Below, one piece after another: positions 37,221 through 55,616 of a DNA stretch of 64,000 nt. Where the stretch lies: positions 4,285 to 68,284 of the forward strand of contig CADEEA010000007.1 in assembly GCA_902826245.1 (NCBI GenBank), in the 5' to 3' direction. How positions within the stretch are numbered: position 1 is the first letter of the stretch; every line of letters starts with the position of its first letter. The stretch comes from an uncultured Alphaproteobacteria bacterium (GTDB lineage Bacteria; Pseudomonadota; Alphaproteobacteria; Caulobacterales; Aquidulcibacteraceae). A program made the position numbers and the translations under genes. The notes beneath the pieces are model-generated. The model did no database searches, was not told the origin of the DNA, and saw only the letters and a program-made list of their open reading frames with translations.

Positions 37221-38030
37221 TCACGGGGCGCGGTTCGCGGCGTCTTCTATTTGCACGCGGTAGCCTGAGCGCACGTGCGGGAAATAATCCCAAATCGCCA
37301 GATGCTGAGTGCAGCGATTGTCCCAGAACGCCACCGAATGCGGCTCCCAGCGGAAGCGCATGGCGAAATACGGATCTTCGCAATGCTGGTAGAGGAACTC
37401 CAGCAAGTGCCGGCTCTCTCTCGGAGAGACTTCATTGATGTGGCTGGTAAAGCCTCGATTGACAAAAATCACCTTGCGGCCAGTCACCGGGTGAACGCGG
37501 ATAACCGGATGCACAGATTTGGGATACTTGCCTTCCGGATCGAAACGGCCAAACGCAAGGATGCCGTCATGGGTGGCCGTCAAACCCTCGAGATAAGTCT
37601 TCATCCGGTCAGAGAGCGCATCATAGGCCGCGTACATGCTGGCGAAAATCGTGTCGCCGCCTTGTGGCGGCAGCGTGTGCAGATAGAGGATGCTGCCCAT
37701 TGGCGGCACTGCGGCGCACGACATATCCGTGTGCCATTCCTCGCCGGAGACATGCTTTGAGTTTTCGTCGGCGTGCAATTTGCGCACGTCGGGATAGTCC
37801 GGCATGCCTTTCAAAGCATGGCGCTGCAGCTTGCCGAAATATTGCCCCACCCGAGACAATGAACCGGGGTCGAGCCTCTGATCCCGGAAGAAGATCACTT
37901 GGTGATCGGCCAACGCTTGGTGCAGATCGTCGACAGCTGCATTGCTCAAAGGCTGGGTCAGATCGACACCGGAAATGACCGCCCCGATCCGCGGTGTGAT
38001 GGGGGAGGCCTTGATTGTGGCGTAGCTCAT
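37221..38030 (-). CDS. TauD/TfdA-family Fe(II)/2-oxoglutarate dioxygenase
   Basis: WHTD facial-triad motif, GGDTIFA and WDNRCTQH. Confidence 0.92.
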   Translation of the reverse strand: MSYATIKASPITPRIGAVISGVDLTQPLSNAAVDDLHQALADHQVIFFRDQRLDPGSLSRVGQYFGKLQRHALKGMPDYPDVRKLHADENSKHVSGEEWHTDMSCAAVPPMGSILYLHTLPPQGGDTIFASMYAAYDALSDRMKTYLEGLTATHDGILAFGRFDPEGKYPKSVHPVIRVHPVTGRKVIFVNRGFTSHINEVSPRESRHLLEFLYQHCEDPYFAMRFRWEPHSVAFWDNRCTQHLAIWDYFPHVRSGYRVQIEDAANRAP

Positions 38031-38083
38031 GGGCGCCTCTGCATGCGTGGAATTTTGACGGCTCGATGACTATAAGTTGCCGC

Positions 38084-38100
38084 AGATTGTCTGGCAATCT
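38084..38100. promoter_or_regulatory. Operator copy 1 of the TTGTCWGACAA motif
   Basis: AGATTGTCTGGCAATCT palindrome between the divergent TauD and quinone oxidoreductase genes. Confidence 0.65.
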
Positions 38101-38127
38101 AGCGAAGCTGGGCACGTGGAGCAGGAA

Positions 38128-39135
38128 ATGGCCGAATCGATGAGGGCAATACGCTTGGACGAAACCGGGCCGCCGGCGAATTTGCGCTGCATCGAGACCG
38201 ATCGCCCGGTCTTGGCGCCAGATGGTGTGCTGATCCGCGTCGCTTATGCCGGTATCATTTATGCCGACGCCGAGGCGCGGCGCGGCACTTATTACCGGAA
38301 AACCACCCTGCCCTGGTTTCCAGGTCGCGAAGCAGCCGGGATTGTTGCTGCTATTGGATCGGCCGTGACCGGGTTCAAGCCGGGCGATCGGGTGGCGGCC
38401 CTGGTCATGGGCGGAGGCTGCTACGCCGAATACGTGCAGGCGCGCACCGCCCCGCACCAGCTTCCCAGCGGCAGCGAAGGCGCGCCCTCTGACATCATTG
38501 CGTTGCCTGATGGGGTGAGCTTCACGCGGGCCTTGGTCTATCTCGTGAACTTCCGACTGGCGCACATTTTGTTTCATGCCTGGGCACGCACGCCGCCTCA
38601 TGCGCGCATCATGGTGCATGGAGCGGCGGGCGGCATGGGCGCCATGCTCCTGCAACTGGCGGCGCAACAGGGCTGCGAAACCATCGCGATGGTGCGCAAC
38701 GAGATGGAAGCGGACTTCTGCCGCCGCCTCGGCGCCGCACACGCGATTGACGCAAGCCAACACGATTATGTCGCGGCGATCGAGGCATTGGGCGGAGGCG
38801 TGCACTTCAGCTTCAACGGCGTCGGCGGCGACACCATTAATCGCGATCCGCTTCTGCTCGCGCCTTTCGGTGAGCTGATCTGCTACGGTTATGTCGCTGG
38901 CAAACAGCCGATCGACTTCTTCGCCCTCGACCGCACGCTGAGCATAAAGTCGTTCAACGCCGACAATTTCCTGAAGACGCCCCATTTCGCTGCCGCTACT
39001 GCTGCCATGCGTGAACAATTTCACCGTGCCGCGCTTCTCGACGCGGGCCGGATATTTCCGCTGCCGCAAGCTGCGGAGGCTCACGAGGCCTTAGAATCTG
39101 GTGACTTTCTTGGGAAGATCGTGCTTCAACCGTGA
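38128..39135 (+). CDS. NADPH:quinone oxidoreductase-like MDR protein (no Zn ligands)
   Basis: PGREAAG and VHGAAGGMG motifs; GKIVL C-terminus. Confidence 0.88.
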   Translation: MAESMRAIRLDETGPPANLRCIETDRPVLAPDGVLIRVAYAGIIYADAEARRGTYYRKTTLPWFPGREAAGIVAAIGSAVTGFKPGDRVAALVMGGGCYAEYVQARTAPHQLPSGSEGAPSDIIALPDGVSFTRALVYLVNFRLAHILFHAWARTPPHARIMVHGAAGGMGAMLLQLAAQQGCETIAMVRNEMEADFCRRLGAAHAIDASQHDYVAAIEALGGGVHFSFNGVGGDTINRDPLLLAPFGELICYGYVAGKQPIDFFALDRTLSIKSFNADNFLKTPHFAAATAAMREQFHRAALLDAGRIFPLPQAAEAHEALESGDFLGKIVLQP

Positions 39136-39175
39136 CCGCCGCGGACTTGACGCCGCCGGCCGCGAGCGCGATGAT

Positions 39176-39186
39176 TTGTCTGACAA
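39176..39186. promoter_or_regulatory. Operator copy 2 (perfect TTGTCTGACAA)
   Basis: Lies 13 bp upstream of the small HTH-like gene at 39200. Confidence 0.7.
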
Positions 39187-39199: not shown

Positions 39200-39478
39200 A
39201 TGTCCGATCTTCATGCCCGCTTGGCGCGGCAATCTCTGCGCCGACCACTCACACCCGACGAAGCGGGACTCGCTTTGGCGCTTGAGCAGATCTTTGCTGG
39301 CGGCCAGCACGACTTTGCAGGTGTCGCCAAAGCACTCGCTGACAGGGACGTGAAGCGCCCGTCCGGTGAAACAAGCGCTTGGACGCCGGAATCACTTGAA
39401 CAAGAGCTAAGACGCATCAACGCCGACTTGGATAAGGCCTACGAGACGCTCGACCTGATGCTAGCAGCAGGAGCGTGA
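39200..39478 (+). CDS. Recombinase-like helix-turn-helix domain small protein
   Basis: R.LT..E..LA.ALE.IF..G.HD...V...L...RPSG...WT pattern, recognised from Rieske-oxygenase-associated clusters; GTGA overlap with the SDR gene. Confidence 0.7.
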   Translation: MSDLHARLARQSLRRPLTPDEAGLALALEQIFAGGQHDFAGVAKALADRDVKRPSGETSAWTPESLEQELRRINADLDKAYETLDLMLAAGA

Positions 39479-40221
39479 TGCTCAAGGGGCGCACAATAGT
39501 TATCACCGGCGCCGCGCGCGGCGTAGGTTTGGCCGCCGCCAAAGCGTGCGCTCGCCATGGTGCGCGACTCGTCCTGGCTGACCTACTCATCGACCTCGGC
39601 AAGGCCGAAACCCAAAGCCTAGTCGAAGGCGGCGCCGAGGCCCGGTTCGTATCCATCGATTTAGACGCCCCCTCTTCGATTGAAGCGTTTGCGGCTGATA
39701 TCAAAGCGCACGAAGGTGGCGTCGACGGCTTAGTGAACAACGCCGCCATCGCTACCAATGTCGGCGGCGCGGGCTTTGAGGACATCGACCCAGCGCTCTG
39801 GGACAAGGTTATGCGCGTCAATGTACGCGGCACGTGGCTTGTCACACGCGCCCTTTCTCCGCTGTTCGGCAAGGACGCCCGCATCGTCAACATGGCGTCC
39901 GACACCGCGCTATGGGGACCGCAACGGCTCCTGGCCTATGTAGCGAGCAAAGGGGCGGTGATTTCCATGACCCGTTCACTGGCGCGCGAATTGGGGCCGC
40001 GCGGCATTGGCATTGTGGCGCTCGCGCCCGGGCTGATGCGCAACGAAGCCACCGAATACGTACCCGCCGAGCGCCACGCCCAAAACGAAAAGGGCCGCGC
40101 TGTACCCGGGCCGCAATTTCCCGAGGACATCGTCGACATAATCGCCTTTCTGCTGACGCCCGCAGCGCTGCCGCTAACCGGGCAAGTCATTCCCGTCGAC
40201 GCTGGCTTTGTGTTTGTTTAG
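39475..40221 (+). CDS. Short-chain dehydrogenase/reductase
   Basis: TGAARGVG, NNAA and YVASKG motifs. Confidence 0.93.
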   Translation: MMLKGRTIVITGAARGVGLAAAKACARHGARLVLADLLIDLGKAETQSLVEGGAEARFVSIDLDAPSSIEAFAADIKAHEGGVDGLVNNAAIATNVGGAGFEDIDPALWDKVMRVNVRGTWLVTRALSPLFGKDARIVNMASDTALWGPQRLLAYVASKGAVISMTRSLARELGPRGIGIVALAPGLMRNEATEYVPAERHAQNEKGRAVPGPQFPEDIVDIIAFLLTPAALPLTGQVIPVDAGFVFV

Positions 40222-40232
40222 CGAGGCGCTGC

Positions 40233-41420
40233 ATGAGCTTACGCTGCCCCATCCCATTTTCGGACCTAGCCCCCATCAATGGGGCCCCCGCACCAACGCG
40301 CTTCTTGCCGCCTGCTGCGTACAATTCGGAGGAATTTCACGCCTTTGAACTCGCTTCGGTGTGGCGCAAGGAATGGATAGCGGTGGGCCGCTGTGAGGAA
40401 ATCGCCGCGCCTGGAGATTATTTCACTGTCAGCATCGGCGAGGACCCGCTCATCGTCATCCGCGGCGACGACCAGGCGATCCACGCCATGTCAGCGGTTT
40501 GCCGCCACCGCGGCATGCTGGTCGCTGACGGCGCAGGCCATTGCAAGGGCCGGTTCGTATGCCCCTATCACAATTGGACCTATGACCGCCGCGGTAACCT
40601 CGTCGGCGCGCCTGGCATGCATGATGCACCAGGCTTTAGGCGTGAAGAAAATGGACTCCCGGCGGTTCGAACCGAGATCTGGGAAGGCGTCATCTTCGTC
40701 AACTTCGATGCGGCCGCGCCGCCCTTGGCGCCGCGGCTGGCGTCACTAGCGCCGATTGTGCGCGATTGGCGGCTGGCGGAGTTGCAAAACGAAAGCGTGG
40801 TCGATCCAACTGCGAAAATGCACTTCGATTACGATTGGAATTGGAAGATCTACGCCGAAGGGCAGAGTGAGTGCTACCATTGCGATAAGCTGCACGGCGA
40901 TACGCCCAGCATGCATGGCATCGATTTCGCCAGCATGAACATGCTAGTGAACGAACCTGACAACGGCGCCTTCGCATTCAGCCTGCGCACTAAGGCGATC
41001 GATCACACGCTAAACCACCTCGGCAAAGCGGTGCTTCCGCCGGTGCCGACTCTTTCGGAAGAACAGCGCTGGCTTTCCTATTCCATCGTCATCGCACCCA
41101 ACATCTTCATGCAATTGATGTCGGACTGCGTGATCCTGCTTTGTTGGTTCCCCAAGCGCGCGCAATCCATGCGGATGAAGCGGTTCCGCATGTACCCACA
41201 ATCAACACTGCACCTACCAGATTTTCTAGCACAGCGCGCGCCCGAAAGAGTGGCGGCACGTTATTTCGTGTCGCAGGACGATGTCGCTTTCGAGAGCGTG
41301 CAACAGGGCTTGCGCTCACATTTCGCGCCGCGCGGCCCTATCGCCTCGGGAGAGCCGATCTTGAGCGGATTCAATCGTTGGCTAATTGATCGTTACCGCG
41401 CCATGGAGCGGCAAGCCTAA
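40233..41420 (+). CDS. Rieske oxygenase alpha subunit (choline-monooxygenase-like group)
   Basis: CRHRG...CPYHNW Rieske motif; ECYHCDKLH and QDDVAFE mononuclear Fe ligands. Confidence 0.9.
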   Translation: MSLRCPIPFSDLAPINGAPAPTRFLPPAAYNSEEFHAFELASVWRKEWIAVGRCEEIAAPGDYFTVSIGEDPLIVIRGDDQAIHAMSAVCRHRGMLVADGAGHCKGRFVCPYHNWTYDRRGNLVGAPGMHDAPGFRREENGLPAVRTEIWEGVIFVNFDAAAPPLAPRLASLAPIVRDWRLAELQNESVVDPTAKMHFDYDWNWKIYAEGQSECYHCDKLHGDTPSMHGIDFASMNMLVNEPDNGAFAFSLRTKAIDHTLNHLGKAVLPPVPTLSEEQRWLSYSIVIAPNIFMQLMSDCVILLCWFPKRAQSMRMKRFRMYPQSTLHLPDFLAQRAPERVAARYFVSQDDVAFESVQQGLRSHFAPRGPIASGEPILSGFNRWLIDRYRAMERQA

Positions 41421-41421
41421 A

Positions 41422-43014
41422 TCAATTGGCCCGCGGCGCCCAAATCCAATCGTAGCGGTCGTTGAAGCGGCGGCGCGGCGGCGCCGAACGCCAATTGGCG
41501 GCGTCGTTGACATCGCCCGAGCCGTCATAGCGCGCTACATTAGGATAGGCGTAAAGCGGACGCGTGCGCACGACCGCACCGTTCTCGCTTTGCGTGGCGA
41601 TGATTCCATCCGGCTCAGCGCCCCCTTCGACCCATCGCACCAAGTGCGGCAAGAAGTCGAACGTATTGGGGGCGTTGCCACCTCGACAATGATACATGCC
41701 CGGCACCATGAACACCCGGAACCAGTTGCGCACGCTATCGAGACCGCCCTGACTTTCGGTGATATTCGCATAATAGTCGAGCGTGGCGAGCGGGGATACG
41801 CCGGGATCGGCCCAGCCATGATAGATAATGAGCTTGCCGCCTCGGCGCTCAAACCCGCTTAGGTCCGGCGTGCCCCGCGGGGGCACCGGATCAAACATCG
41901 CCGCCGACGCTTCGGTCGCCGCGACATCGGTATCGAAATTGAAATCGCGATAATTGTAATCGGGACGAGGTTCGCTGAACGCCAGGAAGCGCAGCCAAGC
42001 TTCGGCAATCGAGCGTCGCCCTGCTCCATCCCACTGCAGTTCCGCTCCAAAGGGTGAGCCACCAATCGAAAGCGCTTGGCCGCGGCTATTGCGCGCGCCG
42101 GCATAAAGACGCCGTGCGGCCTCAACTTGCGCCGGTGACAAACAGGAATCGCGGGCCTGCCCGCGGGGGCAGGCGATCGTGCGCGGGTCGAAACGGCAAT
42201 AGCGCGGATCATCGACAATGCCGTCGCGGACTCCATCCAGTTGATCGCATGCGCGCATTACTGCGGTGGCGATCGTTCGCAACGCCGCTGGCGAAAACAC
42301 GGGTTGATTGTCTGCCGTCAACAGACTTTGCGCGTCCCAATTGTTAGCCAGCGGGCCCTGGCGTCCGGGAAATGCGGGGTCCCCGGCAATAATGCCGTCA
42401 AAATCCTCAGGGAAGAACTGTGCTTCACTCAGCCCCTCGCGCCCGCCCGTGGAGCAGCCGCGGAAATAGGAATAGGCCGCCTGCGCGCCGTAATAGCGCT
42501 CAATGATCGCTTTTGCCGCTAGCGCGACGACGTGCGTAGAGCGCCGGCCGAAATCGCGGCGAAGGGCCGGCTCGCTCGCCCACAGCGCATCTCGCCAGAA
42601 ATGGCCGACATGTCCCATATTGTGCGCCGCCACCGCAAAGCCGCGCGCCTGCGCGTCAGCACAGCCTTCTATGGGAACGTTGCCGCACAGTCCCCCGCAT
42701 CCGGTCTGGAAATAGCGGCCGTTCCATCGCGTCGGCAGACGCAACTCGAACTGAATCTGCGGCTGCACGACGCCGATTACGGCGCAATAGCCGTCTGCGG
42801 CGCCGCGCGCTGGCGTTGTCCGAGCCGAGATGATCGCTGTCGGCGCATCGGCAAGCCCGGAAAAGCTCTGCTGCTCAAGCGCCGCGCACTCAATTGCGCC
42901 GGCAAGGTTCGCGTCTGTTGCGGCCCGCGTTTGCGCCATTGCAGGTGCAAGTGGCCAGCCAAAAGCCGCACTGAAAGCAGCACAGATCAAAGCTCTGCCG
43001 AGCGCCCGCAGCAT
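41422..43014 (-). CDS. Secreted tannase/feruloyl esterase-family hydrolase
   Basis: Signal peptide, GCSTGGREG, HGWAD and PGMYHC (CS-D-HC motif). Confidence 0.92.
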   Translation of the reverse strand: MLRALGRALICAAFSAAFGWPLAPAMAQTRAATDANLAGAIECAALEQQSFSGLADAPTAIISARTTPARGAADGYCAVIGVVQPQIQFELRLPTRWNGRYFQTGCGGLCGNVPIEGCADAQARGFAVAAHNMGHVGHFWRDALWASEPALRRDFGRRSTHVVALAAKAIIERYYGAQAAYSYFRGCSTGGREGLSEAQFFPEDFDGIIAGDPAFPGRQGPLANNWDAQSLLTADNQPVFSPAALRTIATAVMRACDQLDGVRDGIVDDPRYCRFDPRTIACPRGQARDSCLSPAQVEAARRLYAGARNSRGQALSIGGSPFGAELQWDGAGRRSIAEAWLRFLAFSEPRPDYNYRDFNFDTDVAATEASAAMFDPVPPRGTPDLSGFERRGGKLIIYHGWADPGVSPLATLDYYANITESQGGLDSVRNWFRVFMVPGMYHCRGGNAPNTFDFLPHLVRWVEGGAEPDGIIATQSENGAVVRTRPLYAYPNVARYDGSGDVNDAANWRSAPPRRRFNDRYDWIWAPRAN

Positions 43015-43027
43015 ACCTAACTCCTCG

Positions 43028-43059
43028 AAAAAATCCGGCGACCCAGCAGGGCCGCCGGA
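43028..43059 (-). terminator. Intrinsic terminator between the TonB receptor and esterase genes
   Basis: On the minus strand: TCCGGCGGCCC-TGCT-GGGTCGCCGGA followed by TTTTTT. Confidence 0.75.
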
Positions 43060-43067
43060 GCCTATTC

Positions 43068-45392
43068 CTAGAACTCGCTGGATAAGCGCACGCCTATGGT
43101 TCGTGGCCGTGGGGAGTAGACTCTCTGCCCATCTGGCGAGACATCAATCGCGTACTGGGCCTCTTCGTTTGTGACATTATTCACAAACAGACGCACGTCC
43201 CAATTCCCCTGCCGAAGGCCGCCAGCAATATCAACCACAACATAGGAATCCAATTCCACAAAATTGGGATCCGCTGAATTAAACGTCGTGTTCGATGAGC
43301 CACGATAGGACGCCGTCTCCTGCAAATAACCCTCAAGTGAACCGCTCAGATCAAACTCGTATTCCACGCGCTGCGATGCCGCCCATTCCGAGACGCGCGG
43401 AACGCGGTCGCCTTTGAGACCGGGCACGCCAGCCGACACCGGCAAATCCTCACTTAGGCTGGAGTCCGTGTATACCAAGCCGCCACTCAGCGTTAACCCT
43501 TCGACGGGATGCGTAGTGATCTGGAGTTCTGCGCCGTTCACATTGGTTTTGCCGGCGTTGATCGTGAAATCGAAGGCGCCGGACGCGTCAGTGGCGTTAA
43601 GCTGCTGGTCGGCCCAATCGATCCGATAGATCGAGACATCGATGAACGTGTTGCGGTTGAACAGATAAGATTTAGCCCCCAGTTCGTAAGACCACAAGCT
43701 GTCGGGGTCGTAGCTCGCCGGGATGGTGACCCCTGCGGAACCCGCCAGCAGTGTGGAATTATTCACTCCGCCCACGCGGAAACCCGAGGCGGCCCGTGCA
43801 TATAAGCTTAGATCGTCGCTCGGCTCCCAAAGCAGCGACCAATTATAGCTCACCTGCGATTCAGATCCGGTCGTCGTTCCTCGCGAATAAGGAACGGTGA
43901 CATCACCGAATGCGTAGCCGCATAAATTCGGCGGCCCGAAACCGCGATAGACATAGAAGGTTGAGCAGATCGGATCCTGAGCGAAGACGTCCTGCTGGGT
44001 AATGCCGGAATCTGTAATATCGGCGCTGTAGTAGCGCACGCCGATCGTGCCCGTGACCTGCTCGGTAAATTCGTAGTCTCCTTGCGCATAGAGCGCGTAT
44101 TGGTCGATATTGCGGAAATCCACCGTTGAAAACTCGACATTGGGTATCAAACCCGGCGTTGCGTGGCACGCAGCATAGGAAGTGCACGCCAACCTACCCG
44201 TCACGTCATCGGCAACCAGCGCATTGGTTTCCACACGAGTCTCGCTGTTCTCCTTGTAGTATCCTGCGACCAACTGGAAGGGTCCGTCGAAATCGGACGC
44301 GTAGCGAATTTCCGCCGTGCTGTTTTCGAAATCCTGGAAATTGCTCAGTGAGGTCAGGAAGGGCACGCCGAAGCTATTCGCGGTCGGCGTGGTGTCTTCG
44401 GGGCGATAATTACTCTGGGTGGTGTCAGAAATTGCTATCGTGAGTGTACCCGAGCCGAAGTCCGTCACACTTGTAAGTGAAAGGAGATCGTATTCGTCAG
44501 CGTAGGGCTCCACGGTTGGCGAAAGGCTGTTGTACGGGCCTGCTGCAAGGTGCCAATTTTGAGAACCGTCAACTGTGATTTCCTGATGGAGTGCGGCTGC
44601 CGTGAGGGTCCATGACTCCGTCGGGCGGAACGCCAACATAGCGCGAACGCCCTGTACACTCGCGTCGTTTACGTCATCGTACCGTGTAGTACCTGCTAGA
44701 CCCGCGTGTTGGTCAATGAAGCCACCGCCCTCCTCGACCCAGCCCACCGCACGAAAGGCAAGGCGATCACCAAGCGCGGCATTGATCATGCCATCGGCCA
44801 TGTAGAGTTCGTTGCCGCTGTCGATGGTGGCCCCGGACACGTTGATTCTGCCTTCGAAACCCTCGAAGTTCGGTTGTGCCGTGATGACGCGCAGGGTGCC
44901 GCTCATGGAGCCCGAACCGAAGAGAGTGCCCTGCGGCCCACGCAGTACTTCGACCCGCGCGAGATCGTGCAGCCGTATGCCAGGCTTGCCGTCGCCGCCG
45001 CCCTCGGTGCCCGATCCACCGGTCAAAGGTACTTCGTCGATGTACATCCCTACGGTAGAGCCAATGTCGGATTGAACGCCGCGGATAATGAATTGATTGA
45101 AGGCCGCACCGTAATTTTGAGCCGCGAACGTGGAGTCGATCTTGGTGATGTCCTGAAGCGAGGTGACAGCCAAATTTTCAAGTTGCTCGCCAGAAAATGA
45201 AGAAACCGCAAGCGGAATATCTACCAACGCCTGCTCACGCCGGGTCGCCGTAACGACAATTTCGTCGTCAGCGCCCGCCCCCGTTTGCGCCTGCGCCACG
45301 CCGACGCCACCAGAAAGCGCCAACATTCCTGCAGCTGCGCTGCCCGTAAGCACGCTTAGCCGCAACTGCTTCGACCATTTAGATTTCGTCAT
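43068..45392 (-). CDS. TonB-dependent receptor
   Basis: Signal peptide, DEIVVTATRR TonB box, RVEVLRGPQGTLFG plug motif, C-terminal Phe. Confidence 0.94.
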   Translation of the reverse strand: MTKSKWSKQLRLSVLTGSAAAGMLALSGGVGVAQAQTGAGADDEIVVTATRREQALVDIPLAVSSFSGEQLENLAVTSLQDITKIDSTFAAQNYGAAFNQFIIRGVQSDIGSTVGMYIDEVPLTGGSGTEGGGDGKPGIRLHDLARVEVLRGPQGTLFGSGSMSGTLRVITAQPNFEGFEGRINVSGATIDSGNELYMADGMINAALGDRLAFRAVGWVEEGGGFIDQHAGLAGTTRYDDVNDASVQGVRAMLAFRPTESWTLTAAALHQEITVDGSQNWHLAAGPYNSLSPTVEPYADEYDLLSLTSVTDFGSGTLTIAISDTTQSNYRPEDTTPTANSFGVPFLTSLSNFQDFENSTAEIRYASDFDGPFQLVAGYYKENSETRVETNALVADDVTGRLACTSYAACHATPGLIPNVEFSTVDFRNIDQYALYAQGDYEFTEQVTGTIGVRYYSADITDSGITQQDVFAQDPICSTFYVYRGFGPPNLCGYAFGDVTVPYSRGTTTGSESQVSYNWSLLWEPSDDLSLYARAASGFRVGGVNNSTLLAGSAGVTIPASYDPDSLWSYELGAKSYLFNRNTFIDVSIYRIDWADQQLNATDASGAFDFTINAGKTNVNGAELQITTHPVEGLTLSGGLVYTDSSLSEDLPVSAGVPGLKGDRVPRVSEWAASQRVEYEFDLSGSLEGYLQETASYRGSSNTTFNSADPNFVELDSYVVVDIAGGLRQGNWDVRLFVNNVTNEEAQYAIDVSPDGQRVYSPRPRTIGVRLSSEF

Positions 45393-45499
45393 TTGCGCTA
45401 ACTCCCCCGCAACTGAATTGCTTGGCTCTTTTTGCTTTGCGCGCCGACGCCGACGCCCAAACAAAGGATGCATAATGTACGGTGATGCAGTCAAGAAAA

Positions 45500-45510
45500 C
45501 TGTCTGACGA
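45500..45510. promoter_or_regulatory. Operator copy 3 (CTGTCTGACGA)
   Basis: Degenerate motif copy in the TonB receptor upstream region. Confidence 0.5.
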
Positions 45511-45695
45511 TCCTCTGACCGACCGGCCTCGCGCCTTACTCAACCGGGGCAGGCGGCACATGATATTTACAGCGGATTTAGATACACCCAAGCAAATTTT
45601 ATGCTGTCATTAAGTCACAATAAGGTGTTTTACACCCCACATTGGCCATTTTTCCCATAATCACACCTCAGTGCGAGTCTTTGGGTTTTCCAATA

Positions 45696-45706
45696 TCGTC
45701 TGACAA
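45696..45706. promoter_or_regulatory. Operator copy 4 (TCGTCTGACAA)
   Basis: One mismatch to the consensus; in the AT-rich region upstream of the TonB receptor. Confidence 0.55.
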
Positions 45707-45761
45707 AAATGCAACATGTACCTGAGATTTGTGCAGCCGCCGCTGCGGCGGCGTCAAAAGC

Positions 45762-46988
45762 TCAACCGGTAGGGCGTTTCGGTGCAAACCGCGTAGCTAT
45801 GGCAGCAATCAAACAAAGGATCGCGGCGGCTATAATCGGACCACGAAATCCCAAACTGTCAGCGCAGCCGCCAACGATGAGCGCACCGGCCGCAGGTCCG
45901 GCGCGCACCGTTATCGACCAGAGGCTCGCAACTCGCGCTTGGTAGGCAGGGTGGGCCTCTGTTTGGACCAAGATAAGTGCACCGTTGGCGGTTGAGGAAA
46001 TGAAATAGCCGAGGATCGCCGCCAGGCCGATCGCAAGCTCAGTCCAAGGCGCGAGAACGAGGGCCATAAGACTGAGCGCGCTCCCAAAGACGCCGCGCAA
46101 AACGACCGGCTGAGCCAACACGCCTTGGCGCGTCAAACCCACAGCGCCAACCAAGGCGCCGGCGCCAATAGCAGAGACCATTGCCGACAAAAGCACCGGC
46201 CCGCCATTCCATAAGCGATCCACCAATCCCGGCATCAACTCGTAAGCCGGGCGCACAAACAGACACGTGAACGCGAATAGAAGCAGCACACCGCCGATAC
46301 TGCGATGTGAGAAAGCGTAAGCGGCGCCGTCGATCAATCCCTGCACCCATGTGACCTGCGTTGTGGCTTGGGCGGTCATCGGCTCCTGGAGCTGCAACAG
46401 CCAAATGAACGGCAGCCCCATGAGTGCGGCGGCGATTAGACCGGCGCCGGGGCCCAAGGCTAGAAGCGCTGCGCCGCCAAGCGCCGGCCCGACAAAGCGC
46501 GCGATATTGAAGCAAATCGCTGAGATTGCGATCGAAGCCGCAAAGACATCAGGCTGCGCAATACGCCGTATGATTCCCAAACGCGCCGCATCCGAGAGCG
46601 TGGCGGCCGCACCCGCTATCAGCGCGAAGAAAAGCAATAGCCAAGCTTGGCCTGCACCCACTGCGACCGCGATCCCAGCGGCTACGCCACTCAAAACGAA
46701 CGCCGCTTGGCACATGGTGATAAGCCGCGCCTGATCAACGCGATCACCCAGAACTCCACCAATAGGCCCCAGTAGTAGCGCTGGCGCAAAATCGCACGAC
46801 GCCAGAAGGCCGACCCAGAGAGCCGAGTGTGTCGCATCCCAGATCAGCCAGCCAAGAATTAGCCTCTGCATCCAGGCGCCGACAAAGGCCAGAAGATTGG
46901 TCGCGGCGAAGTCCCGATAGCCGCTATCCGCCAGCGCCTTACGGAGTGGATCGAACGATGCAGCGAAGTTTCTAAGCGCTCCGAGCAC
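45762..46988 (-). CDS. MFS transporter (DHA3/MFS_3-like)
   Basis: About 12 hydrophobic segments; GGVLGDRVDQ motif A and FNIARFVGPALGG. Confidence 0.88.
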   Translation of the reverse strand: MLGALRNFAASFDPLRKALADSGYRDFAATNLLAFVGAWMQRLILGWLIWDATHSALWVGLLASCDFAPALLLGPIGGVLGDRVDQARLITMCQAAFVLSGVAAGIAVAVGAGQAWLLLFFALIAGAAATLSDAARLGIIRRIAQPDVFAASIAISAICFNIARFVGPALGGAALLALGPGAGLIAAALMGLPFIWLLQLQEPMTAQATTQVTWVQGLIDGAAYAFSHRSIGGVLLLFAFTCLFVRPAYELMPGLVDRLWNGGPVLLSAMVSAIGAGALVGAVGLTRQGVLAQPVVLRGVFGSALSLMALVLAPWTELAIGLAAILGYFISSTANGALILVQTEAHPAYQARVASLWSITVRAGPAAGALIVGGCADSLGFRGPIIAAAILCLIAAIATRFAPKRPTG

Positions 46989-46991
46989 GCG

Positions 46992-48260
46992 TCATGCACG
47001 CTTGGGACGCGGGGCCGCGTTATGCGGATAAGGACGCAATGTAAGCACAAGTGCGAGCGCGGCAAGGCAGATGGGCGCGCCCAACGCCAAGATCGCATGA
47101 TAGGAGCCGGTGGCGTCATACACGGCGCCGAACGTAACTGGGCCAAGCGCCATCCCCACCATAACGACGCCGAACATAACGCCGAAGATGCTGGCGAAAC
47201 GCCGCACTCCAAAATAGCGGCTAATCAAAAAGGCAAGCAGATCGACCTCAGCGCCGAGTGTGCCACCCAGCAATACAGCTGACGCGTAGAACGCCCACAA
47301 CGGCAAATCCGCTGCCAGCAAGGCAACGCCTGCCGCCGACAATAGAATGAAGATCGCCGCAATCCGGCGCGCGTCAAAACGATCGACAAGGGTCCCGATT
47401 AAAACGCGCCCTCCGAACGAAGCGAGGCCAAACAGAGATGCGATCGCCGCCGCAGCGCCGACCTCCACGCCCCGGCCCGTTAACATCGGTACAAGGTGCG
47501 GGATGAGCCCGTTCAGAACAAAGGACAGCGAAACAAAGATGGCGAGGATCACCCAGAACGCTGCGATCTTGGCCGCGGCGCCGACATCGACGCCCTCTTC
47601 CTGCTGCGCCGCCTCTCCTTGCCTCTTGCCGCCATCAACGGCCAAGCCAAGCTCGGCCGGCTTGTCGCGCAACACCAACGCGATCAGTGGCAGCGTCCCC
47701 AAGAGCATGATGCCGCCAAGGCCGAAATAGCCCGCTTCCCACCCATACTTCGCAACCAAGTGTTGGGTGAGTACTGGCACATAGGCAAATCCTAGTCCGG
47801 TTCCACTGCCGGCAATGCCGATGGCGAGGCCGCGCGATTTGTCGAACCACGACGCCAGCAGGCGCACATAGGCGATGCTGTTGGAGCCGATGGCGATCGT
47901 GCCCATGCCAACATAAAGCGCTATGAACACCCATAATTGCTTAGCGATCAGTGGCACGCCGATCAGGCACAAGCCAAAGATCGCAACAGAGGGCATGAGC
48001 ACAGCCTTTGGCCCGAAGCGATCGACCAGTCGGCCGGCGATGGTCATACACACCGCCGTGCACAACATCATCGCCGTGACGGCGCTGCTGATGGCGGTGA
48101 CGCTCCACCCGAATTCCTCATGCAACGGCCCGATGAAGATACCAATCGAGGCGAGACCGAACGCAGCGGGGCCCGTCGAAATACCGAAAAGGCACACCGC
48201 AACCATAGCCCAACCTGGATAGATCCCCAGGCGCGGCGCAGTTTCAACACTCTGTGTCAT
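46992..48260 (-). CDS. MFS transporter (OFA/monocarboxylate-like)
   Basis: GRLVDRFGPK and GTLVDRFDAR motif A; WFDKSRGLAIG. Confidence 0.9.
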   Translation of the reverse strand: MTQSVETAPRLGIYPGWAMVAVCLFGISTGPAAFGLASIGIFIGPLHEEFGWSVTAISSAVTAMMLCTAVCMTIAGRLVDRFGPKAVLMPSVAIFGLCLIGVPLIAKQLWVFIALYVGMGTIAIGSNSIAYVRLLASWFDKSRGLAIGIAGSGTGLGFAYVPVLTQHLVAKYGWEAGYFGLGGIMLLGTLPLIALVLRDKPAELGLAVDGGKRQGEAAQQEEGVDVGAAAKIAAFWVILAIFVSLSFVLNGLIPHLVPMLTGRGVEVGAAAAIASLFGLASFGGRVLIGTLVDRFDARRIAAIFILLSAAGVALLAADLPLWAFYASAVLLGGTLGAEVDLLAFLISRYFGVRRFASIFGVMFGVVMVGMALGPVTFGAVYDATGSYHAILALGAPICLAALALVLTLRPYPHNAAPRPKRA

Positions 48261-48381
48261 GCTTATCCGCCCCGCTCTGGACTCTCTTGGCTACCACAGC
48301 GCATTCTTCCGGTTTAAGCGAGCGCAGCACCAAGCGCGCCGGAGCCAAGGCGACTTGACCACTTCCCTAAGATAGTTTTGA

Positions 48382-48392
48382 TTGTCAGACAA
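48382..48392. promoter_or_regulatory. Operator copy 5 (perfect TTGTCAGACAA)
   Basis: Between the divergent MFS and Rieske genes; flanks extend the symmetry (TTGAT...ATCAA). Confidence 0.72.
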
Positions 48393-48431
48393 TATCAACA
48401 TCGCGGCTTTGGCCGTGCGGCCGGCAGAACC

Positions 48432-49478
48432 ATGGCGCAGGATCAAAAGGACCGCATCGACGAGCACTTGAGCAGGGGCCTTAAGGGTCTTTGGTATGTC
48501 GTTGCTAAATCTTCTGACTTGAAGACTAGCAAAGTGCTGGCGGTGCGGGCGCTCGGCCGCGAACTCGCGCTGTGGCGTGACAGCAGGGGCAAGATCGGTT
48601 GCGTAGAAGACTTCTGCCCGCACCGCGGCGCGAGATTGTCAGCTGGACGCGTAACGGACGGTCACATCGCCTGCAACTATCACGGCGTTCAGCTCGATGC
48701 GAATGGCGTGGTCGCCAAGGTGCCTGCCCTGCCGAATTGCATTCTGGAAGGCCGAAAAGCGATCGATGCCTTCAGCGTATTTGAGGCGCATGACGCGATC
48801 TTCGCCTACTTCCCGAGTGCGGATCGCCCGAGGGCTGATCCTCCAACCCTGCCATTCGAACTAACCGGCGGAGACTACTCATCCTTCCTCACAACATCGG
48901 TTTGGCGTTGCAATTATCGCTACGCACTCGAAAACGTCGCCGACCCGATGCACGGCCCCTATCTGCATGGCGATACGTTCACGCTCTCAGGCGGCGCGAA
49001 GCAGGACGAAGTGGAGCTGACAACCGTCGATGATGGGTTCACAGTCGCGCGGGTCGCCCAGCAAGGCGAGAATTTCGACTGGGCCCACGTCGTTACCGAG
49101 GCGGGCCTGTTCTACATGCGGGTCAACATCCCCTATCCACCTGCAGGCGGACCAGGGGGAATTATGCGCGTGGTCACGTGCGTTACCCCGATCGATGAAA
49201 ACTCGTGCCGAATCTTCTTCTGGCGAACCCGCAAAGTGAGCGGGCTCGCGCGCGAAGTATGGCGCTTCATGTTCCGAGCCGCGTTCGAGGAGCGCCATTG
49301 GTACGTCTTGGAGCAAGACCGGAATATGTTGGAGAGCTTGGCGCCCAACGCTCGCGACCGTGAAATGCTTTATCAGCACGATATAGGCGTAACTCGCCTG
49401 CGCCAAATGATGCGGCGTATGGCCAAAACGCAAATCGAAGCGGAGAGCCGCGACGCTCCGCGAACCGCCGCAGAATAG
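48432..49478 (+). CDS. Rieske oxygenase alpha subunit (VanA/TsaM-like, alpha-only type)
   Basis: CPHRG...CNYHG Rieske motif; ENVADPMHGPYLH and EQD ligands. Confidence 0.92.
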   Translation: MAQDQKDRIDEHLSRGLKGLWYVVAKSSDLKTSKVLAVRALGRELALWRDSRGKIGCVEDFCPHRGARLSAGRVTDGHIACNYHGVQLDANGVVAKVPALPNCILEGRKAIDAFSVFEAHDAIFAYFPSADRPRADPPTLPFELTGGDYSSFLTTSVWRCNYRYALENVADPMHGPYLHGDTFTLSGGAKQDEVELTTVDDGFTVARVAQQGENFDWAHVVTEAGLFYMRVNIPYPPAGGPGGIMRVVTCVTPIDENSCRIFFWRTRKVSGLAREVWRFMFRAAFEERHWYVLEQDRNMLESLAPNARDREMLYQHDIGVTRLRQMMRRMAKTQIEAESRDAPRTAAE

Positions 49479-49513: not shown

Positions 49514-50740
49514 ATGACCAACGCAGCCTTACCCGCGACGAAGGAGGCCGCGAATTGGCCGCTGGTGCTTTGCGCTATGTTGGGCGTGGCTGTCTGCTGT
49601 ACGCCAATCGCGATCTTGAGCCTCAGCGTGTTTTTTATCCCCCTGGGGGACGCGCTGGGATGGGGTCGCGGCGAGATCGCCGCAGCGCTTTCCATTCTGG
49701 CGCTTTCCATGGGGGTGGCGACCCCATTCGCGGGACGACTCATTGACAGGCTTGGCGTCAAGCCTGTCCTGGTTACATCCTTGTTGCTCTATGCGGGGTT
49801 CATGGCGGCTACGCCATATTTGATATCTCGCTTCGGGCTCTTGGGGTTCTACGGCGCCTATGTCGTCATCGGCATTGTCGGCGCCGGATCGAACACGGTC
49901 GCCTACACGCATGTACTCTCCGGCTGGTTCGACAAGGCGCGCGGCCTCGCGCTGGGCTTTGCGGTGAGCGGCATCGCCGTCGGCGCGGTGGTGGCGCCGG
50001 CGCTCGCGGCCTACTTGATTGAGGCCTATTCCTGGCAAGTCGGGTTTTACGGGCTGGCGGCGCTGCCGGTCCTTGTCGGCGCGCCAATTGCGTTGTTCGC
50101 CATCAGCGAGGCGCCGACGATCACCGCCGCGCATGAGAAGAAGGCTGAGGCGCCAGGCATGGATGCGGCCACCGCTTACAAAACCCGCGAATTCTTAGTG
50201 TTGTTCACGGTGTTCCTGATCGTGGCCACCTGCTTGCACGGCGTGCAAATTCACTTGCCCTCCTTGCTGGAGGATCGCGGCCTCACCACGCAAGCTGCGG
50301 TTGGCGCCTTCAGCCTACTGTTTGCGGTGACGGCGGTGACGCGCATAGCGGCGGGATTCTTGTTCGACCGCATGTTCGCGCCCATCATTGGCGGCGTCTT
50401 ATTTGTTCTTGGCGGCATCGGCATCGCCATGATGATGCCGACCTGGGCAGCGCTCTATTATTTGATCGCGGCGGCGCTGATCGGCATCGCAACTGGGGCT
50501 GAAACCGACCTTCTGGCCTATCTCACCGGGCGCTATTTTGGCTTGAAGGCGTTTGGCCAAGTTTATGGCGGCCTGTTCCTCGCCTTCATGATTGGCAGCG
50601 CCGTCGGCCCTTATGCGCTGGGCTTCGGCTTCGACGCCACCGGCAATTACGACCTCACGCTCACAGCGTGCGCAGTGGGCATGCTTATCGCGTGTGGTCT
50701 GCTTGTGACGCTGCCGCGTTATCCTAAGTTGGAGGCCTAG
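49514..50740 (+). CDS. MFS transporter (OFA/monocarboxylate-like), paralog of 46992-48260
   Basis: GRLIDRLGVK, WFDKARGLALG and AETDLLAYLTGRYFG. Confidence 0.9.
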   Translation: MTNAALPATKEAANWPLVLCAMLGVAVCCTPIAILSLSVFFIPLGDALGWGRGEIAAALSILALSMGVATPFAGRLIDRLGVKPVLVTSLLLYAGFMAATPYLISRFGLLGFYGAYVVIGIVGAGSNTVAYTHVLSGWFDKARGLALGFAVSGIAVGAVVAPALAAYLIEAYSWQVGFYGLAALPVLVGAPIALFAISEAPTITAAHEKKAEAPGMDAATAYKTREFLVLFTVFLIVATCLHGVQIHLPSLLEDRGLTTQAAVGAFSLLFAVTAVTRIAAGFLFDRMFAPIIGGVLFVLGGIGIAMMMPTWAALYYLIAAALIGIATGAETDLLAYLTGRYFGLKAFGQVYGGLFLAFMIGSAVGPYALGFGFDATGNYDLTLTACAVGMLIACGLLVTLPRYPKLEA

Positions 50741-51600
50741 CCGCCGCGGAACCAATCGGTGATTTCACTGCCGGTGGCGAACCAAACGTCCTTGTGCGCG
50801 GCGATATGAGCCAGCGCTTTATCGAGGTGTAAGGCTCGGAATGGGTGCCCGATGAGAAACGGGTGCAGGGCGATCGACATCAAGCGAGGCGTCCTCTCAC
50901 CTTCCGCGTATAATTGGTCAAACTGATCCACAATAATGTCATGGAAAGCCTTGCCCGTCCGCCCTTGGTGCAAGAACACCGGGATGTCGCCGACTTCAAG
51001 CGTGTAGGGCAAGGACAAGATCGAGCCCGCGCGCGTGCTCATCTCGTAAGGCAATTCGTCATTGGCCCAGTCCATTACATAGTCGACGCCTGCCTCTTTC
51101 AGGAGGTCCAGCGTGTTGTTGGTTTCGGTAAGCGCCGGCCCCAGCCAACCGCGCGGGCGCTTGCCACTCGCCTGCGCAATTCGATCAAGAACGCCAGCAA
51201 TAATTGGTTGTTCGGCCTCCGGCGGCATACCGGTGAACAGCATGGAATTGGTCGGCCCATGCGCAACCCATTCCCAGCCGAGCTTGTTGCCCTCTTCAAC
51301 TATGCGCGGGTACTCGTCGCAAACCTCGGAGTTAAGCGCGGCCGTGGCCTTCAGCCCGTGCTTGGCCAAAATCTCCATCACCCGCCACACACCCACCCGC
51401 GCGCCATAATCGCGCCAGGCATGGTTCAGGACGTCTGGGCTTAAGCCCGCCGTCATCGGCGTCATCGACATCGCTGGCTTGCCCCACTGGAAATGCTCGA
51501 TGTTAGGCGTGATCCACACGCCGACACGGGCGTCATTCGGCAATTTGCGAGTCGGCCGATCGACAATCGGCGAATAGTTGAATCGATTATGCCCGGTCAT
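50737..51600 (-). CDS. Polysaccharide deacetylase-family amidohydrolase (PuuE-like)
   Basis: WRDYGARVG, PRGWLGPAL, DWANDELPY and IALHPFLIG motifs. Start could also be 51615. Confidence 0.88.
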   Translation of the reverse strand: MTGHNRFNYSPIVDRPTRKLPNDARVGVWITPNIEHFQWGKPAMSMTPMTAGLSPDVLNHAWRDYGARVGVWRVMEILAKHGLKATAALNSEVCDEYPRIVEEGNKLGWEWVAHGPTNSMLFTGMPPEAEQPIIAGVLDRIAQASGKRPRGWLGPALTETNNTLDLLKEAGVDYVMDWANDELPYEMSTRAGSILSLPYTLEVGDIPVFLHQGRTGKAFHDIIVDQFDQLYAEGERTPRLMSIALHPFLIGHPFRALHLDKALAHIAAHKDVWFATGSEITDWFRGG

Positions 51601-51618
51601 GTGTGCGCTCTCCAAACC

Positions 51619-51864: not shown

Positions 51865-52332
51865 TCAGATGATGAATTGCAGCAGCGGCAACTCGCGCTC
51901 GCTGTTGATCAAGAATACTGTCTTGCGGGCGATGCGAAAATCCTCGCCGGCGCGGCGCAACGCGTGCACGCTGCGGCCGATCCATAGCTGCTGCTCTGCG
52001 GTCCGCGCCACGCCAAGGATAAAGTTCGAGCCCACTTCGCACTTGTCCTCGCGATGGCTCAGAATCTCGATGTTTGACACCACGCGTCGCATGGCCCCGC
52101 GCGCGCCCTCGACAGCAAGCACCGAGCCGGATTTCAGGCGCGCGACCCTCTGTTCGATGCGCGGGTAGTCGTCATTGACGATAGATACTTTTCCTGGCTC
52201 CCCGCCGGCGCCGATCGGAACCTGGTAGACTCCGTCCTTGTCCCAAAGCGCGAGCCAGCCGGAATAATCCATCTCGTCCATCAACCGCGCCTCGCGGAAG
52301 AGGAACGCCTCGACTGCGGCCTGCTCGCTCAC
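51865..52332 (-). CDS. Aromatic ring-hydroxylating dioxygenase beta subunit
   Basis: FLFREARLMD...WLALW, RRVVSNIEI and FRIARKTVFLIN. Confidence 0.92.
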   Translation of the reverse strand: MSEQAAVEAFLFREARLMDEMDYSGWLALWDKDGVYQVPIGAGGEPGKVSIVNDDYPRIEQRVARLKSGSVLAVEGARGAMRRVVSNIEILSHREDKCEVGSNFILGVARTAEQQLWIGRSVHALRRAGEDFRIARKTVFLINSERELPLLQFII

Positions 52333-53576
52333 TCCCCGTCCTCCATGAGCGAAACATAATGCCGCCAGAAGCCACGCAAGTGCGTCTCATCGCGTGTCAT
52401 GCCGGAACGGCCTCCATCCGGCATTGAACGCTCGCGGTGCATGCCGCGGCCAATATAGAGCCGATCATCACCGCGCGCCTGCATGCCGACTTGGTTGCGC
52501 TCCATGATCTCGACATCGTCTGGCGACACAAAGCCAGCCGAGCCGAACATGAATTCGTGATCCGAGAGGCGCGCTTCGTTAATCTCGGCGGGCGCGCCCT
52601 TGAGCATGACCGGGAAATAATAGGAATGCGTTCGATCCACGCTCACCGGCTGCACAACGCGCAAATGTGTGATCACGTACATCAGGTTCGGGAATACATA
52701 GAGCAGCGGCGCCATTGTGCTCAACATGGCCGCCGCCTTGGCCTCGCCATGGCGCGCTTTCAGCTTGGCGATGTATTCGAGACGCGCCGCACTAGGTTGG
52801 CGTTTGGGCGGGTCCATGGGCGCGCCGCGATAATCTTCCACCATGTGCCCACCCGGCAGAGAACGGATCACATCAGGCACTTCGTCCGTCGCAAGCGCGG
52901 TAACGTCAAAACCGGTGCGCTTGGCGTAAAGGTCGAAAGCGACCCCGTGTATGAAGGGGCCATGATAGTCGCCCTCCATCGAGTTCTCCGGCATGTATTT
53001 CCAATTGCCGCGATAGACGACCTTCTGCTCGCCGGCGTCGACCGCAATTTCGCCCTCAGGCGAGAGATCCATGAACAGGTCGAGAAATTCTGTGACGCCG
53101 CCCAAATGCTCGGCCAAGCTCTGCCCTTCTGCAGCGACGCTGGCGAACACTAAGCCGCGATAGCTGTCCTGGCGCGGCAACGGTGTGAGGCCGAAGCGCT
53201 CCTTCTCGAGATCGTAATCATAGCCATCGTCAAAAGTCGGCGCGACAAGCTCACCGGTATTGGCATAGGTCCAGCCGTGGTAGGGACAGACAATGCTCTT
53301 CGCCACACCGCGCTCGGCGAAACACACCAAATTGGCGCGATGACGACAGCGATTGTAGAACACGCGTACCTTGTCATCGTTGCCGCGCACCATAATCACT
53401 GGCTGCAAGCCGATTTGTCTCCGCACGAAGTCGCCCGGCTTTGGCACTTCGCTTTCGTGGCCAACATATACCCACACCCTGTACCAGATGCGCTCCAGCT
53501 CGCGCTGAAACAGCCCCGGGTCGCGGTAGACGCTGCCGCGGACAACGGCGTCCTGGGCTAATGGAGCATCAGTCAT
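52329..53576 (-). CDS. Aromatic ring-hydroxylating dioxygenase alpha subunit
   Basis: NRCRHRA...CPYHGW, EGDYHGPFIH and DDVE motifs. Confidence 0.93.
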   Translation of the reverse strand: MTDAPLAQDAVVRGSVYRDPGLFQRELERIWYRVWVYVGHESEVPKPGDFVRRQIGLQPVIMVRGNDDKVRVFYNRCRHRANLVCFAERGVAKSIVCPYHGWTYANTGELVAPTFDDGYDYDLEKERFGLTPLPRQDSYRGLVFASVAAEGQSLAEHLGGVTEFLDLFMDLSPEGEIAVDAGEQKVVYRGNWKYMPENSMEGDYHGPFIHGVAFDLYAKRTGFDVTALATDEVPDVIRSLPGGHMVEDYRGAPMDPPKRQPSAARLEYIAKLKARHGEAKAAAMLSTMAPLLYVFPNLMYVITHLRVVQPVSVDRTHSYYFPVMLKGAPAEINEARLSDHEFMFGSAGFVSPDDVEIMERNQVGMQARGDDRLYIGRGMHRERSMPDGGRSGMTRDETHLRGFWRHYVSLMEDGE

Positions 53577-53579
53577 CGG

Positions 53580-54668: not shown

Positions 54669-54729
54669 CGCCTCCTCCAGACATGGCTGATGCGCCAAAC
54701 ACTAATCGCTCGAACACGAAACACAAGGA

Positions 54730-54740: not shown

Positions 54741-54752
54741 TTGCGGGTGAGA

Positions 54753-55604: not shown

Positions 55605-55616
55605 AGGCAGGTTCCC

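Follow-up and report, generated by a model that had tools for sequence, protein, structure and literature searches.

Analysis of a 64,000-nucleotide (nt) window of contig CADEEA010000007.1, from an uncultured alphaproteobacterium of the Aquidulcibacteraceae (assembly GCA_902826245.1), uncovered a protein of only 92 amino acids (aa) that belongs to the Pfam family PF20552 (HTH_62, "recombinase-like helix-turn-helix"). This protein (hereafter HTH_62), a short-chain dehydrogenase (SDR; SDR1) and a Rieske oxygenase with a VanA_C domain (RO-VanA) constitute one co-inherited three-gene catabolic module, strictly so in the sampled genomes. The module appears to be undescribed, as the database names of its members are all generic. 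Taking the trio as one module, we consider it somewhat probable that HTH_62 acts as a partner of the oxygenase.

Co-inheritance was evaluated in 401 genomes of the phylum and in 391 genomes of the class, with a strong HTH_62 match defined as at least 44 bits (those in the 401 genomes span 44–112 bits), an oxygenase orthologue as E ≤1e-97, and an SDR1 orthologue as E ≤1e-60; no oxygenase match in the 401 genomes fell between 1e-97 and 1e-40. Strong HTH_62 matches, oxygenase orthologues and SDR1 orthologues occur in exactly the same 14 of the 401 genomes. SDRs are ubiquitous, and the chance of two independent sets of 14 genomes coinciding among 401 is approximately 4e-26. HTH_62 and oxygenase orthologues likewise share exactly the same 14 of the 391 genomes in the class sample (the SDR1 profile covers the 401-genome sample). 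Together the two samples contain 26 distinct genomes with both HTH_62 and the oxygenase, and none with only one of them. Copy number is matched as well: two genomes (G649 and G743) encode two HTH_62 proteins and two oxygenases, and three of these four pairs are adjacent (two in G649, one in G743). An earlier note on this DNA, written from the letters of the sequence, had stated that such a trio co-occurs in proteobacterial clusters, and this is so throughout the genomes sampled.

The window HTH_62 protein matches PF20552 with an E-value of 2e-11, and its homologues bear the same label. Its TGA stop codon (39476–39478) shares one base with the ATG of SDR1 (TGATG), in agreement with the earlier description of a helix-turn-helix (HTH)-like open reading frame (ORF) coupled to an SDR. 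The protein is acidic, with an isoelectric point (pI) of 5.0 and no cysteine; the family has a median pI of 5.0 and a median net charge of −4.3 (119 members), 101 of 129 members contain no cysteine, and a cofactor motif is absent. A word-indexed search recovered 44 homologues, all small and stand-alone, while phmmer against 1.8 billion representative proteins recovered 86 cluster representatives, all stand-alone and 44–124 aa in length, with which the 92-aa protein aligns over its full length. The AlphaFold2 model consists of four helices (predicted local distance difference test score 81.6), with lower confidence in the N-terminal segment that contains Gln11; residues Q11, E21 and W61 are invariant across the family. 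Comparison of the family profile with PDB sequences gave nothing below E = 0.19. Over 47 intact enterobacterial loci, the ratio of non-synonymous to synonymous substitution rates (dN/dS) is 0.10 for HTH_62 and 0.04 for both the oxygenase and the ferredoxin. These values mark HTH_62 as a real protein kept by purifying selection, though selection looser than that on its neighbours, and it is the least conserved member of its cluster. Literature searches for PF20552 or its NCBI product name found no paper, and searches on Rieske accessory proteins or a kynurenate cluster found nothing relevant.

The "recombinase-like" label reflects a true motif similarity, since the weak PF20552 matches (20–35 bits) are the C-terminal HTH regions of serine recombinases of approximately 230 aa and of one 565-aa recombinase. 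The motif LN-x-x-G-...-G-x-W-...-V/L is common to HTH_62 and the C-terminal HTH of small serine recombinases. The 92-aa protein has no N-terminal catalytic resolvase domain with a nucleophilic serine and, judged by its sequence, is not a recombinase; it probably derives from the C-terminal HTH of serine recombinases, having lost any recombinase role. Of the earlier proposal that it is an enzyme partner rather than a recombinase, the negative half thus stands, and the positive half is weighed below as a likely role.

Gene order was read in 20-kb regions around 13 matches, and neighbors were identified in approximately 25 loci by Pfam, record annotation or tblastn. In 11 of the 13 loci, fewer than 100 nt separate HTH_62 from the oxygenase gene downstream of it, and in the other two it is immediately upstream of ATP-binding cassette (ABC) importer genes that precede the oxygenase. 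SDR1 directly follows the oxygenase in 10 of the 13 loci and is found within 10 kb in the remaining three. The ancestral order of the module would be HTH_62-oxygenase-SDR. Contexts are uniform in Xanthobacteraceae, in other metagenomic contigs, and on three annotated plasmids of Paracoccus, Pseudosulfitobacter and Nitratireductor. On these plasmids the operon encodes HTH_62, an ABC importer, the Rieske/VanA_C oxygenase, an SDR, an alpha/beta hydrolase, a vicinal oxygen chelate (VOC) dioxygenase, a second SDR, a thiamine pyrophosphate (TPP) enzyme and an aspartate-dehydrogenase-like protein, with an IclR regulator close by. Across the approximately 25 loci, the conserved neighbors of HTH_62 are SDR2, the TPP enzyme, a hydrolase, VOC/cupin proteins and IclR; the TPP enzyme corresponds to PRK07064 and SDR2 to PRK07062 in NCBIfam, both of unknown function. 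The orthologues that the window shares with other clusters are limited to HTH_62 (50–63% identity), SDR1 (56–73%) and RO-VanA (54–56%). Orthologues of the ABC transporter, hydrolase, VOC, SDR2 and TPP genes of loci L002 and L005 were not found in the window, and the rest of its genome contains no close counterparts to these other cluster genes (best 26–38% identity). A transport role for HTH_62, whose gene overlaps the ABC ATPase gene in Rhodobacterales, was considered and discarded, as the enterobacterial and most other non-alphaproteobacterial loci have no ABC genes between HTH_62 and the oxygenase.

A pattern scan of species genomes with the enterobacterial HTH_62 sub-alignment yielded 57 loci (L052–L108), almost all from Enterobacteriaceae, including Klebsiella pneumoniae ATCC 13883 (L092), K. 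oxytoca, the Enterobacter cloacae complex, Enterobacter hormaechei (L055), Raoultella, Kluyvera, Leclercia and Cedecea. Here the cluster comprises 12 genes in the order Rieske ferredoxin, HTH_62, oxygenase, SDR1, IclR, VOC, ferredoxin reductase, major facilitator superfamily (MFS) transporter, cupin, hydrolase, SDR2 and aspartate-dehydrogenase-like protein; the full order was checked in 6 of the 57 loci, and the cluster appears to be widely conserved in Enterobacteriaceae. HTH_62 is located between the Rieske-ferredoxin and oxygenase genes in K. pneumoniae ATCC 13883, E. hormaechei, Raoultella, Leclercia and Cedecea, and in one locus of this type (L041) its start and the end of the ferredoxin gene share 4 nt. 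For a non-enzyme gene, such a position between an electron carrier and its oxygenase is what would be expected of an enzyme component. The E. coli control genome gave no PF20552 match. Under the label Brevibacterium metallidurans, a 637-bp contig (L093) encodes an enterobacterial-type HTH_62 with 84% identity and is probably assembly contamination.

RO-VanA contains both metal centers expected of a Rieske oxygenase. The Rieske motif CxH-x15-19-CxxH is present at residue 62 (CPHRGARLSAGRVTDGHIACNYH; CPH...CNYH; Pfam Rieske 84 bits), and the iron site DPMHGPYLH (D/E-x-x-H-x(3-5)-H) at residue 171, within a protein that scores 67 bits against VanA_C. No beta-subunit (Ring_hydroxyl_B) gene is found beside it, the next gene encoding an MFS transporter, so that the earlier note's alpha-only Rieske gene at 48432 is borne out. 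The best PDB sequence matches of RO-VanA are SxtT, phthalate dioxygenase, DdmC and CarAa (≤74 bits), and its best named NCBIfam match, SdmA, reaches 66 bits, far under the cut-off of 600. A homologue search with the oxygenase returned generic names only, from a clade that, clustered at 90% identity, comprises over 1,500 protein clusters, and NCBIfam has no specific name for any member of the trio or conserved neighbor. We predict an alpha3-type, alpha-only Rieske non-haem-iron enzyme that would hydroxylate a probably aromatic substrate, with electrons likely delivered via a Rieske ferredoxin and a ferredoxin reductase, which the enterobacterial clusters encode themselves. No reductase gene was found in the island of the window; elsewhere in this genome, contig C18 encodes a ferredoxin reductase and, next to it, a [2Fe-2S] ferredoxin, contig C33 a 364-aa ORF with a [2Fe-2S] (Fer2) domain, and contig C47 an ORF of Rieske-ferredoxin size, making C18 and C47 possible sources of electron donors. 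Two oxygenase orthologues, G100:C29:82236-83252 (TGA) and G401:C88:45145-46161 (TAG), contain one in-frame stop each, and may be pseudogenes or sequencing errors.

A second alpha-only Rieske oxygenase (RO-A) is encoded between SDR1 and RO-VanA, with intact Rieske and iron-site motifs and no beta-subunit gene next to it. RO-A and RO-VanA give no significant BLASTP alignment (best E 0.056) and appear unrelated beyond the Rieske fold, and no RO-A counterpart at 60 bits or more was found in the 13 whole-genome clusters compared. RO-A is thus best regarded as a lineage-specific addition outside the conserved trio, as the earlier note had suspected of an unrelated alpha subunit placed behind the HTH/SDR pair, and RO-VanA, not RO-A, would be the partner of HTH_62.

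SDR1 contains a complete NAD site (TGAARGVG, TGxxxGxG, at residue 10) and the catalytic YxxxK motif (YVASK, residue 154), and matches adh_short_C2 with 179 bits (E 1.7e-52). No NCBIfam equivalog reaches its cut-off, the nearest models, pyridoxal 4-dehydrogenase and generic SDRs, being far below. The earlier note had cast the SDR as an accessory subunit; because the NAD site and YxxxK are complete, as in a self-sufficient NAD(P)-dependent dehydrogenase, and ferredoxin and reductase genes are already part of the enterobacterial clusters, SDR1 is better read as the next pathway enzyme, one that would oxidize the alcohol or cis-diol made by the oxygenase. A role as electron donor was rejected, since the protein has no flavin or iron-sulphur motif and the enteric clusters have dedicated ferredoxin and reductase genes. 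In most genomes, genes for extradiol-type (VOC or cupin) proteins and a hydrolase come next, which fits a series of hydroxylation, dehydrogenation, ring cleavage and hydrolysis.

The window also contains a repeated 11-nt palindrome, TTGTCWGACAA, with two perfect copies and three with one mismatch (five against 0.46 expected; none of 100 shuffles reached five). The perfect copies precede HTH_62 and RO-VanA, one at each unit as previously stated, and share 13 nt in opposite orientation (GATTGTCAGACAA); the extended consensus is roughly GATTGTCWGACAATC. Each of the five sites is intergenic or in a promoter region, and three of them (39176, 38087 and 48382) adjoin or overlap matches to sigma-70-like promoters. 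The operator is present only in the lineage of the window (L048, L049, L109 and L110, with only one-mismatch variants in L050) and is absent from 19 other HTH_62 loci. L109 is the sole relative locus that reaches as far as the GntR/UTRA regulator gene, and the gene is kept there together with the operator. Given this restricted distribution and this conservation, the operator was assigned to a GntR-type regulator rather than to HTH_62, and the GntR/UTRA protein encoded at 56978–57694 is its likely binder. GntR-family operators reportedly follow a GT-Nx-AC rule. HTH_62 itself was dismissed as the binder of TTGTCWGACAA on account of the 19 loci that lack the site, and the operator, a site of this one lineage, finds no support as a link to HTH_62. 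Locus L110 contains six operator copies, each with at most one mismatch, together with a GntR/FCD regulator.

Related loci suggest how the arrangement in the window arose. L048 and L049 (82% identity) encode TauD, a medium-chain dehydrogenase/reductase (MDR) protein, HTH_62, SDR1, RO-A and the esterase in the same order as the window. The marine metagenome scaffold L109, whose oxygenase is 75% identical, runs SDR1, RO-A, operator, RO-VanA, MFS, deacetylase, alpha/beta dioxygenase, amidase, GntR, TPP and amidase, and is without the esterase, TonB-receptor and MFS block. From this order, the 9-kb gap in the window amounts to a 7-kb block (41422–48260) that was inserted in the window or lost in L109. 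L110 encodes RO-VanA, an MFS transporter and RO-A with a different SDR. The 41422–48260 block has an operator variant of its own at 45696, which suggests that the uptake/esterase block was recruited into the same regulon. In this lineage, then, a second oxygenase (40233) would have been gained and the 7-kb block would have split the module, leaving both halves and three further units under one putative GntR/HutC-type repressor acting through the palindrome GATTGTCWGACAATC. Domain calls from Pfam and NCBIfam scans are collected in Table 1 together with the operator sites. A third Rieske system (51865–57694) is a minus-strand run headed by the GntR/UTRA gene and comprising the alpha and beta genes, a luciferase-like monooxygenase, an alpha/beta hydrolase and an amidase, with an operator variant at 54730; its luciferase-like and hydrolase genes are missing from L109. 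The AT skew is +0.335 in the 2-kb bin 46001–48000, against an absolute value of ≤0.12 in all other bins, and this bin coincides with the two minus-strand MFS genes.

Table 1 Genes, operator sites and a promoter match around the HTH_62 gene, in window coordinates.
Feature	Position	Strand	Remarks
TauD-family dioxygenase	37221-38030	-	
MDR quinone-oxidoreductase-like protein	38077-39135	+	
Operator variant	38087-38097		TTGTCTGGCAA; between TauD gene (-) and MDR oxidoreductase gene (+)
Sigma-70-like promoter match	39147-39175	+	TTGACG-17-GATGAT; 9/12 matches; 0.3 expected in shuffles; directly upstream of operator
Operator, perfect copy	39176-39186		TTGTCTGACAA; 13 nt before HTH_62 start codon; same place in L048 and L049
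HTH_62 (PF20552) protein	39200-39478	+	92 aa; Pfam 44.2 bits (gathering threshold 27 bits)
SDR1, classical short-chain dehydrogenase	39478-40221	+	adh_short_C2
RO-A, alpha-only Rieske + Ring_hydroxyl_A oxygenase	40233-41420	+	N-terminal part GbcA-like
Tannase/feruloyl esterase	41422-43014	-	Signal-peptide-like N-terminus
TonB-dependent receptor	43068-45494	-	
Operator variant	45696-45706		TCGTCTGACAA; upstream of TonB-receptor gene
MFS_3 transporter	45762-46988	-	
MFS_1 transporter	46992-48260	-	
Operator, perfect copy	48382-48392		TTGTCAGACAA; divergent promoter region MFS_1/RO-VanA; kept upstream of the orthologue in L109 and L110
RO-VanA, alpha-only Rieske/VanA_C oxygenase	48432-49478	+	
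MFS_1 transporter	49514-50740	+	Co-oriented with RO-VanA; same neighbor in L109 and L110
Polysaccharide-deacetylase-like protein	50737-51615	-	
Alpha/beta Rieske dioxygenase	51865-53576	-	Alpha 52329-53576; beta 51865-52332
Luciferase-like monooxygenase	53580-54698	-	
Operator variant	54730-54740		TTGTCTGACAT; upstream of luciferase-like monooxygenase / alpha-beta Rieske dioxygenase genes
Alpha/beta hydrolase	54753-55604	-	
Amidase	55617-57068	-	
GntR/UTRA (HutC-type) regulator	56978-57694	-	
TPP enzyme	57720-59471	+	
Second amidase	59474-60829	-	

On the reading we favor, HTH_62 most likely binds the oxygenase, whether it serves as structural subunit, as assembly factor, or as effector or docking protein. 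A protein-binding role is preferred over a DNA-binding role because the family is acidic, no operator travels with it, each cluster has a separate regulator, and its copy number is tied to that of the oxygenase. Several observations weigh against this reading. No Rosetta-stone fusion of HTH_62 to a Rieske or SDR domain was found by phmmer among the 1.8 billion representatives, and a Foldseek search of the AlphaFold2 model against the PDB returned nothing below E = 2.6. The metagenomic contig L110 (Logan SRR21700174) encodes an oxygenase with 62% identity and neither HTH_62 nor SDR1 within 18 kb; it is the only counter-example to tight linkage and is one contig, not a whole genome. In the window itself HTH_62 is coupled to the SDR and not to the oxygenase, so that adjacency would leave its binding partner ambiguous, and the ancestry of the protein in a DNA-binding motif may yet allow a regulatory role. 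Locus L110 may also be the one case that could show this oxygenase working without HTH_62.

That regulatory role would make HTH_62 a small DNA- or RNA-binding regulator of the oxygenase operon, for instance an autoregulator or co-regulator encoded as its first gene, as suggested by the motif it has in common with small serine recombinases and by its leading position in the operons of the alphaproteobacterial loci and of several others. We consider this unlikely, as the family is negatively charged and its beta/gamma-type members have very few basic residues in the shared motif, while an IclR or GntR regulator is already present in each full cluster and the sole repeated operator seen is absent from the 19 other loci. 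Nor does such a role agree with the enteric gene wedged between ferredoxin and oxygenase, overlapping the former in L041, or with a copy number that tracks the oxygenase.

If instead HTH_62 served the SDR, as a dehydrogenase partner, or served the pathway otherwise, for instance by binding a reactive intermediate, membership of the same pathway would be all that ties it to the oxygenase. The same perfect phylogenetic profile of the SDR would fit, as would the window and loci L048–L050, where HTH_62 and the SDR form one operon with the oxygenase elsewhere. Three genomes have the opposite arrangement, with the SDR 8–10 kb from an adjacent HTH_62-oxygenase pair, and an oxygenase copy adjoins each HTH_62 duplicate of G649 and one of those of G743, which together make this explanation quite improbable. 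The analogy drawn in the earlier note, by which HTH_62 and the SDR are subunits of a multi-component 6-hydroxypicolinate monooxygenase like PicB, is unsupported and very improbable: PicB does need four genes, its least conserved component, PicB2, recalls HTH_62, and ring-cleavage enzymes are present in the conserved neighborhood, but PicB1-4 are described as classical ferredoxin, reductase, large and small subunits (bioRxiv 10.1101/530550), no PicA (molybdenum hydroxylase), PicC (decarboxylase) or PicD-G genes were found in the window or the approximately 25 loci read, and an SDR cannot pass single electrons to a Rieske center, for which enteric clusters carry their own ferredoxin and reductase.

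Going beyond the favored reading, we tentatively propose that PF20552 could be an unrecognized obligate third component of a large alpha3 Rieske clade, a cofactor-less acidic subunit or effector, taken from the DNA-binding domain of a serine recombinase, for assembly, ferredoxin docking or coupling. If true, this would give Rieske oxygenases an analogue of the diiron monooxygenase effectors, and would account for an uncharacterized catabolic operon whose conservation extends from marine alphaproteobacteria to Klebsiella and Enterobacter. Rieske oxygenases have a central place in the breakdown of aromatics and alkaloids and in biocatalysis, and many fail to express or turn over in new hosts; a small partner with such strict co-inheritance would be a component lacking so far, to be supplied whenever members of this clade are reconstituted. 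Klebsiella pneumoniae, Enterobacter, Raoultella, Paracoccus and roseobacters all have the conserved catabolic operon that the module marks, and in HTH_62 a recombinase domain for DNA binding would, in a clean example, have found a new use in a protein associated with an enzyme.

Comparison with known systems places the module near several of them. PicB of Alcaligenes faecalis JQ135, a four-component 6-hydroxypicolinate 3-monooxygenase, resembles it as a multi-gene Rieske oxygenase with one poorly conserved component in a proteobacterial catabolic cluster. However, PicB1-4 share 35–45% identity with their counterparts in classical Rieske ring-hydroxylating oxygenases, and are compared as ferredoxin, reductase and large and small oxygenase components with BphA1-4, HcaA1A2CD, AndAaAbAcAd and others in figure 5 of that paper, PicB2 being the least conserved Pic protein (bioRxiv 10.1101/530550). 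The paper mentions no HTH_62 or SDR component, and the neighbors of PicB are PicA, PicC and PicD-G.

The alpha3-type Rieske oxygenases VanA, DdmC, SxtT/GxtA, phthalate dioxygenase, CarAa, KshA and NdmA/B share with RO-VanA the CxH...CxxH center, the D-x-x-H-x4-H site, the VanA_C domain and the lack of a beta subunit, but are only distant relatives (≤74 bits). Among them, CarAa is also supplied through a three-component chain with a Rieske ferredoxin and a glutathione-reductase (GR)-type reductase, as in the enterics. A PF20552 partner is not known to us from any of these systems. The NdmCDE caffeine N7-demethylase reportedly includes NdmE, a protein resembling glutathione S-transferases, and would thus be a precedent in which a Rieske oxygenase complex requires an accessory protein that has neither a redox function nor a cofactor. 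NdmE differs in having a glutathione-S-transferase fold that is not homologous to HTH_62, and NdmC has no Rieske domain of its own, whereas RO-VanA is complete.

In TsaM/TsaC, SdmA/SdmB and BphA/BphB, a Rieske oxygenase is paired with an NAD-dependent dehydrogenase that oxidizes its product; unlike the trio, these pairs are not known to have a small third partner, and they show no orthology to the module. The small cofactor-less effectors MmoB and DmpM, encoded in operons of soluble diiron monooxygenases, act only by binding the oxygenase; they belong to a different enzyme superfamily and fold from HTH_62, so that the likeness is one of analogy only, and we know of no effector of this kind for Rieske oxygenases. 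With the C-terminal HTH, or Recombinase domain, of serine recombinases, HTH_62 shares its motif, but it differs from that domain in being stand-alone, acidic and free of a catalytic domain, and in being tied to an oxygenase.

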